Source: a virus
Taxonomy: Duplodnaviria; Heunggongvirae; Uroviricota; Caudoviricetes
Reading direction: 5' to 3' (one strand)
IMG/VR virus record: IMGVR_UViG_2695420739_000014
Coordinates: 1 to 4,226 of that record
DNA: 4,226 nt
Part shown: positions 1 through 4,226 of the stretch, piece by piece
How the letters are laid out: every line of letters starts with the position of its first letter
Position numbering within the stretch: the stretch's first letter is position 1
Translations under genes and position numbers: made by a program
Notes under the pieces: generated by a model
Seen by the model: only the letters and a program-made list of their open reading frames with translations
The model's database searches: none
Told to the model about the DNA's origin: nothing

Positions 1-228
1 CGTGGCTGTCTGGAATATGACGTCAGCGCCACCGACATCACCAGCTCGTTTATGGCTATCCGCAAGAGCATGACCAGCAGCGGACGCAGCGCCACCTATG
101 AGGCCAGCCGCAGCGAGGAAGCCAGCCACGCCGACCTCGCCTGGGCGACCATGCATGCCCTGTTAAATGAGCCACTCACCGCCGGTATCAGCACCCCGCT
201 GACATCCACCATTCTGGAGTTTTACTGA
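1..228 (+). CDS. P: Terminase large (ATPase) subunit, C-terminal 75 codons only; the 5' end lies upstream of the window (P2 gpP-like)
   Basis: Frame 1 is open from base 1 to TGA at 226-228 (translation ends ...ASHADLAWATMHALLNEPLTAGISTPLTSTILEFY*). The stop overlaps the portal ATG as TGATG. Position directly upstream of the portal gene and co-oriented matches the P2 P-Q late operon. Not in the ORF track because it has no long start-to-stop ORF inside the window. Confidence 0.75.
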   Translation, partial: RGCLEYDVSATDITSSFMAIRKSMTSSGRSATYEASRSEEASHADLAWATMHALLNEPLTAGISTPLTSTILEFY

Positions 229-1262
229 TGAGCAAGAAAAAAGGGAAAACACCGCAACCTGCGGTAAAAAAAATGGCCGCCAGCGCCCCGAAAATGGAGG
301 CATTCACCTTTGGTGAGCCGGTGCCGGTGCTCGACCGCCGTGACATTCTGGATTACGTCGAATGTATCAGTAACGGCAGATGGTATGAGCCGCCGGTCAG
401 CTTTACCGGTCTGGCAAAAAGCCTGCGTGCTGCCGTGCATCACAGCTCACCGATTTACGTCAAACGCAATATTCTGGCCTCGACATTTATCCCACATCCG
501 TGGCTTTCCCAGCAGGATTTCAGCCGCTTTGTGCTGGATTTTCTGGTGTTCGGTAATGCGTTTCTGGAAAAGCGTTACAGCACCACCGGCAAGGTCATCA
601 GACTGGAAACCTCACCGGCAAAATATACCCGCCGTGGTGTGGAAGAGGATGTTTACTGGTGGGTGCCGTCCTTCAACGAGCCGACAGCCTTCGCACCCGG
701 CTCCGTGTTTCACCTGCTGGAGCCGGATATTAATCAGGAGCTGTACGGCCTGCCGGAATATCTCAGCGCCCTTAACTCTGCCTGGCTGAATGAGTCAGCC
801 ACGCTGTTCCGCCGCAAGTATTACGAAAACGGCGCTCATGCCGGATACATCATGTACGTCACCGATGCCGTGCAGGATCGCAACGATATCGAAATGCTTC
901 GCGAAAACATGGTTAAGTCGAAAGGCCGCAACAACTTTAAAAACCTGTTTCTCTATGCCCCGCAGGGGAAAGCTGACGGCATTAAAATTATCCCGCTCAG
1001 TGAAGTGGCGACGAAGGACGATTTTTTTAATATCAAAAAAGCCAGTGCCGCAGACCTGCTGGACGCGCACCGCATCCCCTTTCAGTTGATGGGCGGCAAG
1101 CCGGAGAACGTCGGGTCGCTGGGTGATATTGAGAAAGTGGCAAAGGTCTTTGTCCGCAATGAGCTTATCCCGTTACAGGACAGGATTCGGGAAATAAACG
1201 GCTGGCTCGGTCAGGAGGTCATCCGCTTTAAAAACTACTCACTGGACACTGACAACGGCTGA
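228..1262 (+). CDS. Q: Phage portal protein (P2 gpQ-like), 344 aa
   Basis: Complete ORF ATG 228 to TGA 1260-1262. GGAG at 216-219 sits 8 nt upstream of the ATG. The translation (MSKKKGKTPQP...EAFTFGEPVPVLDRRDILDYVECISNGRWYEPP...) is recognisable to me as the P2-family portal; length and position next to the terminase gene and about 170 bp from cos agree with P2. Confidence 0.93.
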   Translation: MSKKKGKTPQPAVKKMAASAPKMEAFTFGEPVPVLDRRDILDYVECISNGRWYEPPVSFTGLAKSLRAAVHHSSPIYVKRNILASTFIPHPWLSQQDFSRFVLDFLVFGNAFLEKRYSTTGKVIRLETSPAKYTRRGVEEDVYWWVPSFNEPTAFAPGSVFHLLEPDINQELYGLPEYLSALNSAWLNESATLFRRKYYENGAHAGYIMYVTDAVQDRNDIEMLRENMVKSKGRNNFKNLFLYAPQGKADGIKIIPLSEVATKDDFFNIKKASAADLLDAHRIPFQLMGGKPENVGSLGDIEKVAKVFVRNELIPLQDRIREINGWLGQEVIRFKNYSLDTDNG

Positions 1263-1267
1263 ACATC

Positions 1268-1289
1268 GCCGCCTGCGGGCGGCTTTTTT
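1268..1289 (+). terminator. Rho-independent terminator downstream of the portal gene
   Basis: Perfect 6-bp GC stem GCCGCC (1268-1273) / GGCGGC (1278-1283), 4-nt loop TGCG, followed directly by TTTTTT (1284-1289), starting 6 nt after the Q stop codon. Confidence 0.8.
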
Positions 1290-1431
1290 ACACCCTGTCA
1301 TCACGCCCTCACACGCTCACCACCGCACAAAACACCCCGCAGACACACCAACGCCTCAACGGGCAGACTAAACGCCGTCACGACGCGCTCAGACGCTGAA
1401 AAAATAAAATCAGCACCACCGCCAGCGCGCA

Positions 1432-1540: not shown

Positions 1541-1558
1541 AAACGAATGCAAATTCAT
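1541..1558 (-). terminator. Weak candidate intrinsic terminator downstream of the DUF2971-like gene
   Basis: On the - strand, 21 nt after the TAG stop: 6-bp AT-rich stem AUGAAU (1558-1553) / AUUCGU (1548-1543) with one G-U pair, loop UUGC, then UUUUUUAUUU. The stem is weak, so this is tentative. Confidence 0.3.
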
Positions 1559-1578
1559 GCACCGTATGTATGCAGAGG

Positions 1579-2397
1579 CTATTTAGACTCAAGTTGGATT
1601 TTATAATTTGTAAAATCAGCTTTTGCTGTCATTATTTCAATGCCATTTTTTTTGGCGAAATTTTCAATAAAAACTCGCATATCTCCGGATAGACGCTCGC
1701 CAATAATTATCGCATCAATGCAACATCCTTGCAGGGGAACTTCGATACCACTCTGATGTTCATAAACAGCCTCAGTATCGAGGAAATGCAAGCTTCTTAC
1801 CTCATCCTCTCGCTCCCAATCAGAATGTTTAACAAGTGCAAAATCAAAATTCACAGACACCGGTTCACCACGAGCCATCTCAAGGAGATATTTATAAAAA
1901 TCAACTCTAGGGGCTTTATCGTCATATGTAACATCAAAAAGTTCAATACCCGACCCCTTCAACCTTTCTCTATTATATGCAAAACATATTCCTTTCATTC
2001 CGTTTCCATAATAACCCCACATCAATCTACTATTATAGTTTTTAGTAAAACTTGCTACTGCAACATTCTTTTGAAACTCGATTAGAAAACCACTAGCAAA
2101 ACCGTCCCCCCACACTTCATCAAAGCGTTGATAAATCTTACCAAGCTCATTTTTATCTAATAGTTCTCGAAGCTCCCTCCCTTCACCTGTAATTTTATCC
2201 AATCTATCTATCAGGGTTGATATATCCGACTTATCGAAATACTTAAGGGATTCTTTATCAAAATGATAAAACATGTCAAATGGGTCATTAAGAATGCTAT
2301 TTTTGGAATGCCAAATAGCATTGTTAACAAGCTCATTTATAGTATTGATGTTATCCCCTCTAAACCTGAAGATATGAGTTGCACTTGAAAGAATCAT
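1579..2397 (-). CDS. DUF2971-like protein (272 aa), AT-rich accessory gene; candidate defence/abortive-infection effector, function unknown
   Basis: ORF from ATG (2397-2395) to TAG (1581-1579). AAGGGG Shine-Dalgarno-like sequence 5 nt upstream of the ATG. Spot counts give about 27-42% GC per 60-nt block against about 60% in the portal gene. Motifs I associate with DUF2971: N-terminal ...AIWHSKNSILNDPFDMF... and central ...LMWGYYGNGMKGICFAY... No Walker A P-loop. Confidence 0.8.
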   Translation of the reverse strand: MILSSATHIFRFRGDNINTINELVNNAIWHSKNSILNDPFDMFYHFDKESLKYFDKSDISTLIDRLDKITGEGRELRELLDKNELGKIYQRFDEVWGDGFASGFLIEFQKNVAVASFTKNYNSRLMWGYYGNGMKGICFAYNRERLKGSGIELFDVTYDDKAPRVDFYKYLLEMARGEPVSVNFDFALVKHSDWEREDEVRSLHFLDTEAVYEHQSGIEVPLQGCCIDAIIIGERLSGDMRVFIENFAKKNGIEIMTAKADFTNYKIQLESK

Positions 2398-2463
2398 TCT
2401 GGCCCCTTTTCAGCCGGTCAAGAAAAGTAAGACTCTAACGCCTCACTCGCTCGTTGTTCAACC

Positions 2464-2498
2464 CCGCCAGCACTGAAAGCAAGTTTCAGCACCAGCGG
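2464..2498. repeat. Imperfect inverted repeat in the intergenic gap upstream of the DUF2971-like gene
   Basis: 15-nt arms CCGCCAGCACTGAAA / TTTCAGCACCAGCGG pair at 11 of 15 positions around a 5-nt spacer GCAAG; the inner 6 bp (CTGAAA/TTTCAG, 2473-2489) are perfect. It sits between the small-ORF stop (2511) and the DUF2971-like start (2397). Confidence 0.4.
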
Positions 2499-2510
2499 TG
2501 TTTGCTATGG

Positions 2511-2741
2511 TCAACGTGGCCGCGGAATTATCGGACCTCTCGCTGGTATGAATGATCCATTTTGCTGATTGCTGATATCACGGAGCTTACCGTAATTATC
2601 CCTGACTATTTCGGCACACCCGACCAGCTCGTCAGGCGTCAGATTTTCGTTAACCATAATCTGCTGTAGACGGTGAACAATAGCCATCAGCTTGATATTT
2701 TTAGTTTTATGTTGCGGTATCTCGCCTGGTATTCTGTGCAT
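2511..2741 (-). CDS. Hypothetical small protein (76 aa from the ATG at 2741; the ORF-track start at 2753 is a GTG)
   Basis: ORF ends at TGA 2513-2511. The ATG at 2741-2739 overlaps the TAA stop (2743-2741) of the upstream gene as TAATG, suggesting translational coupling. No strong Shine-Dalgarno sequence and no family recognised (MHRIPGEIPQHKTKNIKLMAIVHRLQQIMVNENLTPDELVGCAEIVRDNYGKLRDISNQQNGSFIPARGPIIPRPR). Confidence 0.4.
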   Translation of the reverse strand: MHRIPGEIPQHKTKNIKLMAIVHRLQQIMVNENLTPDELVGCAEIVRDNYGKLRDISNQQNGSFIPARGPIIPRPR

Positions 2742-3196
2742 TATCCAAGCCACCCGTTTTGCTGTGCACGCTCCATCTGTTCATCTGAATAGTTCCATGC
2801 TCCATCCGTGGCAACCATTGCCCCGCCAGACATCCCCGTCTCTGGTTCATACATAACAGCAAGGCCGAGCTGATGCATAATTTCATGATTAATTCTGAAT
2901 ACCAGACCACGCTCACTAAGTTCTTTCCAGTTCACAATCTCATATGCGCCTGTATTAAGCAGCTCAATACTTAGCAAGACATAATCTTCCAGCCAGTCTG
3001 ACAGGTCAGTAACATCTGTTATCCGGGCTTCAACCTTTCGCCCCGTATACACACCCTGTACCCATTCATGCAAAATCAACGTGTCCCCGCGCTCATAATT
3101 ACGGTCATTTTTCCGAAACTCTGCGCGTTTCTTTCCTTCCAGCACAAGGTCAAAATATTTGGCGTGCAGCTTTACCTCGTGAATTTTTGCCATCAT
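2741..3196 (-). CDS. DUF3850/ASCH-like (PUA-fold) domain protein with C-terminal HExxH motif, 151 aa
   Basis: Start assigned to ATG 3196-3194, which overlaps the TGA stop of the A-like gene (3195-3193) as ATGA; GGAG lies 5 nt upstream. The ORF-track start at 3229 is a GTG inside the A coding region and is less likely. N-terminal MAKIHEVKLHAKYFDLVLEGKKRAEFRKNDRNYERGDTLILHEW... resembles DUF3850/ASCH domains. HEIMH is encoded at 2887..2873. Stop TAA 2743-2741. Confidence 0.75.
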   Translation of the reverse strand: MMAKIHEVKLHAKYFDLVLEGKKRAEFRKNDRNYERGDTLILHEWVQGVYTGRKVEARITDVTDLSDWLEDYVLLSIELLNTGAYEIVNWKELSERGLVFRINHEIMHQLGLAVMYEPETGMSGGAMVATDGAWNYSDEQMERAQQNGWLG

Positions 3197-4226
3197 TTCC
3201 ACTCCATTACTGTTGAGAATCCCGGCCACTCATCAGCGACCGGATACGTGAATTTTTTCCCGTCATAATTTACGGTCGCGCCACGCGCCAGCGCCTCAAG
3301 CTCCCATCGCTGCGGCCTGATACCGTTCTGAGCAAGGTCAACGCGGATACGGGTAATTTGCATTCTTTCCGACCGGGTCAGTCTGGCCGATGGTGCAATT
3401 TCATGTGGTTTTAACGGGCTTCCGTTTCTCTGCTGACGGTTTGGCGTTCGCAGGTCGTGTTTTAATGCGCCCCTGAGCGCCCTCACGACCTCCGGTTCAT
3501 TCCATTCAATAACACCGTCATCAACCAGATTAAGCACGGCTGCGGCGTGCTCAGAAGGTGTGGGAGCCGGTAACGAAGTATCACCACCGGTGAGCTTTCC
3601 ACAGTTATTGACAGGACTCCGAGGCGCGGCGATGCCGCTTTTTAAAGTCAGAGGCTCAACGACCGGAACTTTCGGCACAATGCGCCAGTCCGTCGTTCTG
3701 GTGATATGAATATGACGCGCGCCGAGATGCGGCGCGTAAATGCCGACCACTCTCTCGACTTCTTCCTCGTACTCGTTAACTTCATCCGACGGACTACGGG
3801 CGACCCTGACAGTCTGACAATCGCGCGGGACATTTGCCCCACCCTGCGCGCTGATATACAACGCAAAATCACCACTGTCTGCGGCGGCGCGTGCAGCCTC
3901 GACGCGCTCGTCAAACTCATCAGCAATGCTGACGCCGCGAGGCAATTTGCGTAGTTCACGGTAAGCCCCCATTGTCGGCAGACCAACCGTTTTAAATTGT
4001 GGGATGCGCCACGTTGACGCCCATGCGGTAACAGCCGCAGCAGTGTCTTTCAGCGGTCTGCCGGTATCGTTATCGAGCTGACCATCCAGTGCATAGCCAT
4101 CGATGTTTTTTGAGATGTATTTCGCGATATACCCCGCAGCACCGCCCTGGTTAAGGTGTTTTGCCTGAAAACGGTTTCGCGCGGCTCCTCTTTCGTCGCC
4201 ATCCTCTTTGAGCGCATAGCGACGCA
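3193..4226 (-). CDS. A: Rolling-circle replication initiator endonuclease (P2 gpA-like), C-terminal ~344 codons; the 5' end lies outside the window
   Basis: The - strand frame is open from the window edge (4224) to TGA 3195-3193; the ORF track shows only the part from the internal ATG at 3972. The translation contains GAAGYIAKYISKNIDG with two tyrosines four residues apart, matching the Y-x-x-K-Y active-site arrangement of P2 A as I recall it. If the first tyrosine is Y450, the implied total length is about 761 aa, the size I recall for P2 A. Confidence 0.85.
   Translation of the reverse strand, partial: RRYALKEDGDERGAARNRFQAKHLNQGGAAGYIAKYISKNIDGYALDGQLDNDTGRPLKDTAAAVTAWASTWRIPQFKTVGLPTMGAYRELRKLPRGVSIADEFDERVEAARAAADSGDFALYISAQGGANVPRDCQTVRVARSPSDEVNEYEEEVERVVGIYAPHLGARHIHITRTTDWRIVPKVPVVEPLTLKSGIAAPRSPVNNCGKLTGGDTSLPAPTPSEHAAAVLNLVDDGVIEWNEPEVVRALRGALKHDLRTPNRQQRNGSPLKPHEIAPSARLTRSERMQITRIRVDLAQNGIRPQRWELEALARGATVNYDGKKFTYPVADEWPGFSTVMEWK
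3608..3627 (-). other. Candidate replication origin / A-protein nick site inside the A coding region
   Basis: The - strand reads GCGCCTCGGAGTCCTGTCAA. The P2 ori is known to lie within gene A; I recall the nick-site sequence only approximately, so this is tentative. It is flanked on the + strand by a GC hairpin GCGGC-GAT-GCCGC (3626-3638) followed by TTTTT. Confidence 0.35.

Follow-up and report, generated by a model that had tools for sequence, protein, structure and literature searches.

A DUF2971 gene of a P2-like prophage in the cos-proximal hotspot: a candidate single-gene anti-phage defence with a predicted ADP-ribosyltransferase fold

The first 4,226 nucleotides of the IMG/VR virus record IMGVR_UViG_2695420739_000014 (referred to as the window, which is the whole stretch of DNA that was analysed) belong to a P2-like (Peduovirus) prophage, and the window crosses the joined cos site. 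Beside cos, between the replication gene A and the portal gene Q, lies a gene on the minus strand that encodes a 272-aa protein of the family DUF2971. The gene order is gpA, DUF3850, an 80-aa open reading frame (ORF), the DUF2971 gene, cos and portal, and the position of the gene is that of the P2 hotspot. The cos-proximal gpA-gpQ region of P2-like phages has been described as an anti-phage hotspot with 1,650 arrangements, in which old and tin are found; DUF2971 is listed 18 times in the supplementary table of that study, and none of these entries is described as tested in its main text (PMC9122126). The best-supported reading of the gene is single-gene anti-phage defence by NAD+-dependent ADP-ribosylation, which is on balance probable. 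The features of the window are as follows (L numbers denote comparison loci):

1-228, plus strand: end of the terminase gene gpP, GC 60.5%
228-1262, plus strand: portal protein gpQ (phrog_68, E 5e-176), GC 53%, GC content at third codon positions (GC3) 65%
1268-1283, plus strand: terminator
1413-1428, minus strand: terminator-like hairpin and T-run, just past cos on the strand of the DUF2971 gene, kept in YpM50, L004 and L010
1432-1450, minus strand (reverse complement): cos, the exact P2 19-nt cohesive end GGCGAGGCGGGGAAAGCAC, by comparison with annotated P2 cosR
1547-1574, minus strand: conserved cos flank with three TGCAT repeats (1547-1551, 1557-1561 and 1570-1574), by alignment with P2, 186 and vB_YpM_50
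1579-2397, minus strand: DUF2971 / PDC-S31 gene, 272 aa
2398-2434, minus strand: cargo-specific 5' leader of ~37 nt, by alignment and blastn boundaries
2403-2408, minus strand: Shine-Dalgarno sequence AAGGGG, 5 nt before the ATG (2395-2397), read from the sequence
2435-2504, minus strand: conserved cassette-junction element, a 15-bp hairpin (2464-2498) and then a tail (2435-2465)
2511-2753, minus strand: 80-aa ORF, phrog_11386
2741-3229, minus strand: DUF3850/ASCH and DUF7415 protein, 162 aa, the counterpart of P2 Orf91
3193-4226, minus strand: C-terminal part of the replication endonuclease gpA, the frame being open to the window edge

The 272-aa ORF ends in a TAG codon at 1579-1581 and is confirmed as a real gene and not a chance ORF. 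The probability of 272 stop-free codons at its composition is ~1.5e-10, and the ratio of non-synonymous to synonymous substitution rates (dN/dS) is 0.15-0.16 when the gene is compared with homologues of 74% and 60% identity, which indicates purifying selection. The exact protein is recorded in 106 blocks of the public collection, with the same context in the 24 contigs that were read, and near-identical copies, annotated as DUF2971 in RefSeq, are carried by 5 of 5,426 complete E. coli genomes. A previous reading of the window from its letters alone (the sequence-only reading) had reported a 272-aa ORF with an AAGGGG Shine-Dalgarno sequence, a 113-bp gap upstream, the motif NDPFD near the N-terminus, a central MWGYYGNGMKGICFAY and a position abutting cos. 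These were all recovered here: the spacing to the ATG is 5 nt, the gap spans 2398-2510, the two motifs are located at residues 37-41 and 126-141, and the stop codon is separated by 4 nt from the conserved cos flank and by 128 nt from the P2 cos 19-mer. The same reading was right that the gene is low in GC (35.9%, with a GC3 of 29.7%), but its figure of about 60% for the flanks was slightly high, as these range from 53 to 60% (55.6% for the end of gpA and 58% for the cos intergenic region). The gene is foreign in composition and was horizontally acquired.

The proposed membership of DUF2971 was borne out by an HMM search, as the protein matches Pfam DUF2971 (PF11185) with 26.4 bits (gathering cutoff 22; E 1.8e-5), although this match is modest and partial and covers residues 126-201 only. 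The match to the PADLOC family PDC-S31 is full-length (model PDLC04990, E 5.8e-33, residues 5-270 against positions 5-256 of 259), and three other PDC-S31 models also match. PDC-S31 stands for phage defence candidate, single gene 31, in PADLOC-DB v2.0.0; it is a computational candidate with no phenotype or mechanism attached, and no mention of it was found in the literature that was searched. The protein also matches phrog_1762 (function unknown), and neither the gene nor its neighbours have a match in NCBIfam.

Homologues numbered 48 by word-indexed search and 148 with a profile, and the enterobacterial ones form two clades, one of 272 aa (47% identity or more) and one of about 300 aa (about 30%). 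When 1.84 billion representatives were searched exhaustively with a profile, 15,998 proteins were returned at E <= 1e-3 and only 27 at E <= 1e-30; the library was compiled from all public genomes and metagenomes, and each of its representatives stands for a cluster at 50% identity. The window protein is thus a member of a small subfamily, and the superfamily around it is very large and made up mostly of stand-alone proteins with 250-330 aa. A diverse sample of 123 relatives was used for the analysis of conservation, and all 123 match both DUF2971 and PDC-S31. N37, D38, Y130, W194, E197 and R201 are invariant among them, and P39, M126, W127, G136, Y158, K190, E199 and G233 are conserved in at least 90%. 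Position 11 is always basic (R in 67, K in 45), and H30 is invariant in both hotspot clades but is found in 28 of 123 in the wider set. The DUF2971 signature (NDP-F/E near the N-terminus; MW-x-x-Y; K-x3-W-x2-E-x-E-x-R) is present in the window protein. In its architecture the gene resembles PDC-S31 as defined, being a single stand-alone gene of about 270 aa, and the window protein is an additional enterobacterial prophage member of a recognised candidate defence family, of which both the hotspot and the predicted fold have already been published.

Six homologue contexts were examined, the window protein included. The homologues found in the slot on the gpA strand share 74% identity (a metagenome contig), 60% (Enterobacter), 50% (Pantoea) and, for two carried by 186-like prophages of E. 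coli and Enterobacter, ~30%. In the Enterobacter locus the DUF2971 gene is alone between gpA and the portal gene, and in the 186-like prophages it follows tum and orf97. No conserved partner gene was detected across the six contexts, the neighbours differing by locus, and from these neighbourhoods the gene appears to be a single-gene, stand-alone system that requires no partner. Plasmids yielded only distant DUF2971 members when the plasmid collection was searched by tblastn. The slot itself is both variable and dispensable, with 17 of 95 loci almost free of cargo. A phage cargo gene of this same slot, Rst_DUF4238 of phage pro483, has been validated as a single-gene system (PMC9122126). In a Pantoea prophage (L009, 5001-8159) the DUF2971 gene is accompanied by a gene of the AIPR (abortive infection phage resistance) family, so that two defence candidates are stacked in one slot.

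The position of the gene and its AT-richness had suggested a resemblance to P2 tin or old, and these two similarities are real: Tin and Old are AT-rich accessory cargo of the same slot and exclude other phages. The proteins are however unrelated to the window protein. BLASTP returned E values of 0.68 for Tin, the alignment that had been proposed as a check, and 0.58 for Old, with no alignable region, and Pfam detected no AAA/ATPase or TOPRIM signature. The orientation also differs: transcription of tin and old starts on the cos side at their own promoter and runs against that of gene A, whereas the window gene is co-oriented with A. That the gene is a diverged Tin or Old homologue in their position is refuted at the level of sequence and domain, and its probability is negligible.

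The closest cultured phages are Yersinia phage vB_YpM_50 and its relatives, which are 96-97% identical to the window and match all of it except 1487-2434, the segment that corresponds to the DUF2971 gene. On its upstream side this segment borders the junction element, which consists of the 15-bp hairpin followed by an invariant tail of ~30 nt, GGGGTTGAACAACGAGC-N3/4-GCGAGGCGTTAG. The element is ~90% identical in 186-like prophages whose DUF2971 proteins share only ~30%, and it is present in vB_YpM_50, which has a different cargo gene. It was detected in 66 records of cultured phages, 186, PSP3 and Wphi among them, and in at least 120 IMG/VR contigs of P2/186-like phages, with copies for example in phage 186 (L013, 2840-2914), in the Pantoea prophage (L009, 5855-5927) and twice each in L042 and L100; it is absent from the right end of P2 and from P4. 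Across 95 loci the distance from the element to cos ranges from 240 to 3,520 bp, and these loci hold at least 23 clusters of cargo in both orientations; the upstream border of the slot is therefore fixed and is marked by the element. The conserved cos flank at 1547-1574 is the downstream border.

The hairpin is conserved as a structure and not as a sequence, since the stems are wholly different between lineages while pairing is retained. In an alignment of 40 sequences 92.7% of cells are paired, with compensatory changes at 10 of the 15 pairs; the covariation score is 0.393 compared with 0.205 for shuffled alignments, a value reached by none of 500 shuffles, and slid registers are all paired at 52% or less. 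The covariance model (CM) gave a match with E 1e-24. G·U pairs dominate at three positions, which shows that the structure is specific to the sense strand, either as RNA or as single-stranded DNA of that strand. At least three unrelated genes (orf97-like, DinI/TumB-like and the 80-aa ORF family) have the element 9-21 nt behind their stop codons; in two loci the 80-aa ORF has a copy on either side, and in Pantoea the element follows the DUF2971 gene itself. No U-tract is present, and in phage 186 the annotated terminator t95b is located 24 nt beyond the element. It could act as a 3' stabiliser or processing site, as an insulator, or as a recombination flank for cassette exchange, and it may explain how the cargo of this slot is exchanged or expressed.

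Three identities of the element were considered and rejected. It has no Rfam match to a known RNA; indels in the tail spacer and an in-frame stop exclude the end of a coding ORF; and although the GTTGAAC of the tail fits the GTTRRRY of an integron attC site, an inverse core and an IntI integrase are both absent. It is mentioned neither in Rousset 2022 (PMC9122126) nor in a 2026 preprint.

As the 80-aa ORF lies directly upstream of the DUF2971 gene on the same strand, and toxins of the ADP-ribosyltransferase (ART) type usually need an immunity partner, the possibility was considered that the two form a toxin-antitoxin or addiction module comparable to DarT-DarG or AbiGi-AbiGii, with the 80-aa ORF as antitoxin. 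In the loci of the ~300-aa clade that were seen, a 243-aa gene always precedes DUF2971 and could likewise be taken for a partner. The 80-aa ORF was rejected as antitoxin on its distribution, since it is kept in P2-like phages that lack DUF2971 and is missing from the Enterobacter and Pantoea loci that have it; in other phages it forms an independent cassette of its own between two junction elements, and it has no macrodomain or other known antitoxin signature. The 243-aa gene is orf97 of phage 186, where it is present without DUF2971. A two-gene module of this kind is highly improbable. The 80-aa ORF family (with a C-terminus ending in PPPRR) behaves as a mobile cassette, for example in L042 and L100, and its annotated starts vary (76 or 80 aa) or the ORF is skipped.

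The structure of the protein was predicted with AlphaFold2 (AF2) from an alignment of 63 sequences, and the model is confident (predicted local distance difference test, pLDDT, 92.5; predicted template modelling score, pTM, 0.85). It has an ART fold with a helical insert (about residues 48-111) and a small C-terminal alpha/beta subdomain (about residues 217-272). The top Foldseek matches in the PDB are DarT. Further fold matches are the ART toxins TreX, SopF, TreTu, heat-labile enterotoxin, scabin, PARP15, CteC and pertussis toxin. The viral library BFVD returned only a few uncharacterised proteins with E about 5e-4. Judged from the model, the predicted fold is nearest to ARTs that act on nucleic acids (Tpt1/KptA and DarT). 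A putative NAD-site signature can be read in the order R/K11 or H30, Y130 and E197-x-E199, the last of these where the strand 199-205 begins, and is accompanied by the conserved basic residues K190 and R201.

The sequence-only reading had described DUF2971 as a family of unknown mechanism. This is outdated, as the family has been placed in the ART superfamily and linked to DarT and AbiGi by FFAS and HHpred; it is described as an H-Y-E type in which the Tyr is strictly conserved, the motif-I His is poorly conserved and an E-x-E is present (PMC12522546). The assignment is reproduced here at the level of the fold, and the conservation of residues in the 123 relatives fits the published description; the mechanism is still a prediction. 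Because a sequence-level link to ARTs was not reproduced and the pocket is putative, the assignment has fold-level and literature support and is not proof of activity.

An ART fold could also belong to an enzyme that is not an ART toxin, such as a Tpt1/KptA-like NAD-dependent RNA 2'-phosphotransferase, or to an end-modifying enzyme, a catalytically different protein or a non-enzymatic binder, whose role would lie in the repair or processing of RNA and not in killing. The conserved basic residues R/K11, R13, K190 and R201 recall the catalytic set of Tpt1, which is composed of Arg and His. The poor conservation of the motif-I His across the family (see also PMC12522546) points the same way. However, E-x-E (E197/E199) and Y130 are typical of ART transferases and not of Tpt1, and no relationship to E. 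coli KptA was seen when the family profile was compared with it by hhalign (E 0.46, probability 0.1%). Tpt1/KptA is moreover a housekeeping or repair enzyme without E-x-E that is found in another genomic context, whereas the window gene occupies a defence hotspot and its plasmid-borne relative Aristaios has an abortive infection (Abi) phenotype. A role of this kind is quite unlikely.

DarT, although among the top fold matches, also differs from the window protein in several respects. The window protein has large helical inserts, an extra C-terminal subdomain and E-x-E, whereas DarT has a single catalytic Glu and no E-x-E. It has no DarT match in Pfam or PADLOC, and the window contains no DarG macrodomain antitoxin, the neighbours being the domainless 80-aa ORF and the DUF3850/ASCH protein.

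The 113-bp gap upstream of the gene had been taken as a sign of independent expression, and this interpretation did not hold. About 70 of the 113 bp are the junction element, which is shared with phages that carry other cargo, and only the ~37 nt of the leader, the Shine-Dalgarno sequence and its spacer, are cargo-specific; these fit a ribosome-binding site and not a promoter. The leader is kept only among DUF2971 cassettes of the 272-aa clade (the window, strain ES5 with accession NZ_CP133871, L004 and L011). A promoter scan of the gap found no strong sigma-70 match. As the cassette brings only ~37 nt of its own upstream DNA, the gene is probably transcribed by read-through from the upstream operon across the junction hairpin.

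Two promoter candidates were examined and set aside. The only match of the scan, TTGACC-17-AATGAT (2421-2393), overlaps the start codon and cannot serve the DUF2971 ORF. The other, TTGAAC-N18-TAGAGT, spans the element boundary with 8 of 12 matches; its -35 lies in DNA that is kept whatever the orientation of the cargo, and it is unlikely to be a promoter. An intrinsic terminator directly after the gene was likewise rejected, as only a weak hairpin of TGCAT repeats with a window-specific T-run is found there (fold z-score -0.67). No terminator of the t95b type is present between cargo and cos in the window, unlike in 186 and vB_YpM_50, and the hairpin at 1413-1428, past cos, is the first terminator-like signal after the gene.

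The arrangement raises the question of whether the protein serves the phage during its lytic cycle instead of protecting the lysogen. It would then be an ART that is co-transcribed with the early replication operon, modifies components of the host or of a competitor while P2 grows, and acts in host takeover, anti-defence or interference with the P4 satellite, in the manner of T4 Alt, ModA and ModB. The gene is on the strand of gpA and immediately downstream, its cargo-specific upstream DNA is short, and the gap has no strong sigma-70 match. The chief argument for a lytic role is that transcription most likely enters from upstream through the element, which leaves expression in the lysogen uncertain. 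The proven lysogenic-conversion genes of P2, old and tin, run the other way and have their own mapped transcript starts, and in 186-like prophages the ~300-aa clade lies downstream of the LexA-controlled tum-orf97 operon. On the other side, the ~16,000 relatives come from a library of all public genomes and metagenomes, the family also occurs on plasmids, and none of 50,697 cultured phage records has a homologue of the window protein; the family is a PADLOC defence candidate; Aristaios, the one member that has been tested, is plasmid-encoded and defends a bacterium (PMC11381338); and the variable slot can be left almost without cargo. A lytic function is unlikely.

In the two 186-like prophages (L005 and L010) the ~300-aa clade is located directly downstream of tum and orf97, genes of what is in phage 186 (L013) the LexA-controlled p95 SOS operon. 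Because of this placement these copies may be inducible by DNA damage. The annotation of the orf97 product of phage 186 states that it blocks infection by 186 if produced from a plasmid.

Single-gene defence is preferred because four lines of evidence agree: the gene lies in the hotspot, is foreign in composition, belongs to a PADLOC candidate family and is under purifying selection. The sequence-only reading had proposed a candidate single-gene defence or abortive-infection effector, and this proposal gains support from the full-length PDC-S31 match, the P2 hotspot (PMC9122126) and Aristaios (PMC11381338). Aristaios is a 316-aa DUF2971 protein encoded by the lactococcal plasmid pUCCL641_199 (BioProject PRJNA1086404); it has been validated by experiment as an Abi system of a single gene, and an ART-like AF2 model is reported for it (PMC11381338). 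It shares with the window gene a DUF2971 single-gene architecture on a mobile element, and differs in being longer and carried by a plasmid of a Gram-positive host; the identity, for proteins compared by description only, is probably below 25%. A tblastn search of the plasmid collection gave no lactococcal match.

We infer the defence phenotype, the enzymatic activity, its target, control without an antitoxin and the mode of transcription. In the proposed mechanism the protein would be produced at a low level in the lysogen and held inactive until a trigger from a superinfecting phage is received. Once activated, it would use NAD+ in transferring ADP-ribose to a nucleic acid, or possibly to a protein, and the synthesis of phage and cell macromolecules would be halted, leading to abortive infection or growth arrest. 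A nucleic acid is the most plausible target because the nearest folds act on nucleic acids, and this model-based step is the weakest of the scheme.

Several observations weigh against defence by ADP-ribosylation. Expression in the lysogen is not assured, since the gene runs in the direction of the early operon, whose transcription is repressed in lysogens, and lacks a convincing promoter. There is no antitoxin beside the gene, which leaves the restraint of a toxic ART unexplained. The sole experimentally tested member of the family, Aristaios, is distant and comes from a Gram-positive background. No homologue was found by tblastn in the 50,697 cultured phage records. With regard to the predicted chemistry, a PDB profile search returned no match at all, and no Pfam DarT, AbiGi or other ART family was among the matches listed for the 123 members (HMMER, E <= 1); the KptA profile comparison was negative, as given above. 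In the model the motif-I residue could be either R11 or H30, and the clustering in an NAD pocket is putative.

A more specific and tentative proposal, which we regard as possible though doubtful, would account for the missing antitoxin. The protein would be a nucleic-acid ART of the DarT/Tpt1 type that dispenses with an antitoxin, being silenced by its own helical insert or C-terminal subdomain and activated directly by a phage cue, and the expression of all cargo in the slot would be governed by the junction element acting as a structured RNA not described before. If true, self-silencing of this kind would add a new form of regulation to ART-based immunity. The DUF2971 family is very large, with one validated defence member and a mechanism that is experimentally untouched, and the E. 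coli prophage copy offers a convenient model, as it is compact (272 aa), has a high-confidence structural model and clear candidate catalytic residues, and belongs to a tractable P2 lysogen. It is suited to asking whether DUF2971 proteins ADP-ribosylate, what their target is and how the host survives without an antitoxin, and it adds one more case to the catalogue of P2 hotspot cargo.

Some further features of the locus and its relatives were observed. An IMG/VR contig (L016) carries another DUF2971 subtype in the same slot, a 175-aa ORF starting MILYKYMHYD...NFNDPYE, in the opposite orientation; DUF2971 has therefore entered the hotspot more than once. The 162-aa counterpart of P2 Orf91 has a DUF3850/ASCH (RNA-binding-like) domain fused to a C-terminal DUF7415, whereas P2 Orf91 has only 109 aa; the gene overlaps both neighbours, at its start the end of gpA and at its end the 80-aa ORF. 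A T-run, TTCGTTTTTTATTT, follows the third TGCAT repeat (1500-1560 region) and is found in the window lineage only. In addition to the three TGCAT repeats within the 28 bp of the cos flank, a fourth is present at 1475-1479 in TGCATTAAAA near cos; the repeats are common to the window phage, P2, 186 and vB_YpM_50, and are presumably part of the functional cos/terminase recognition region.

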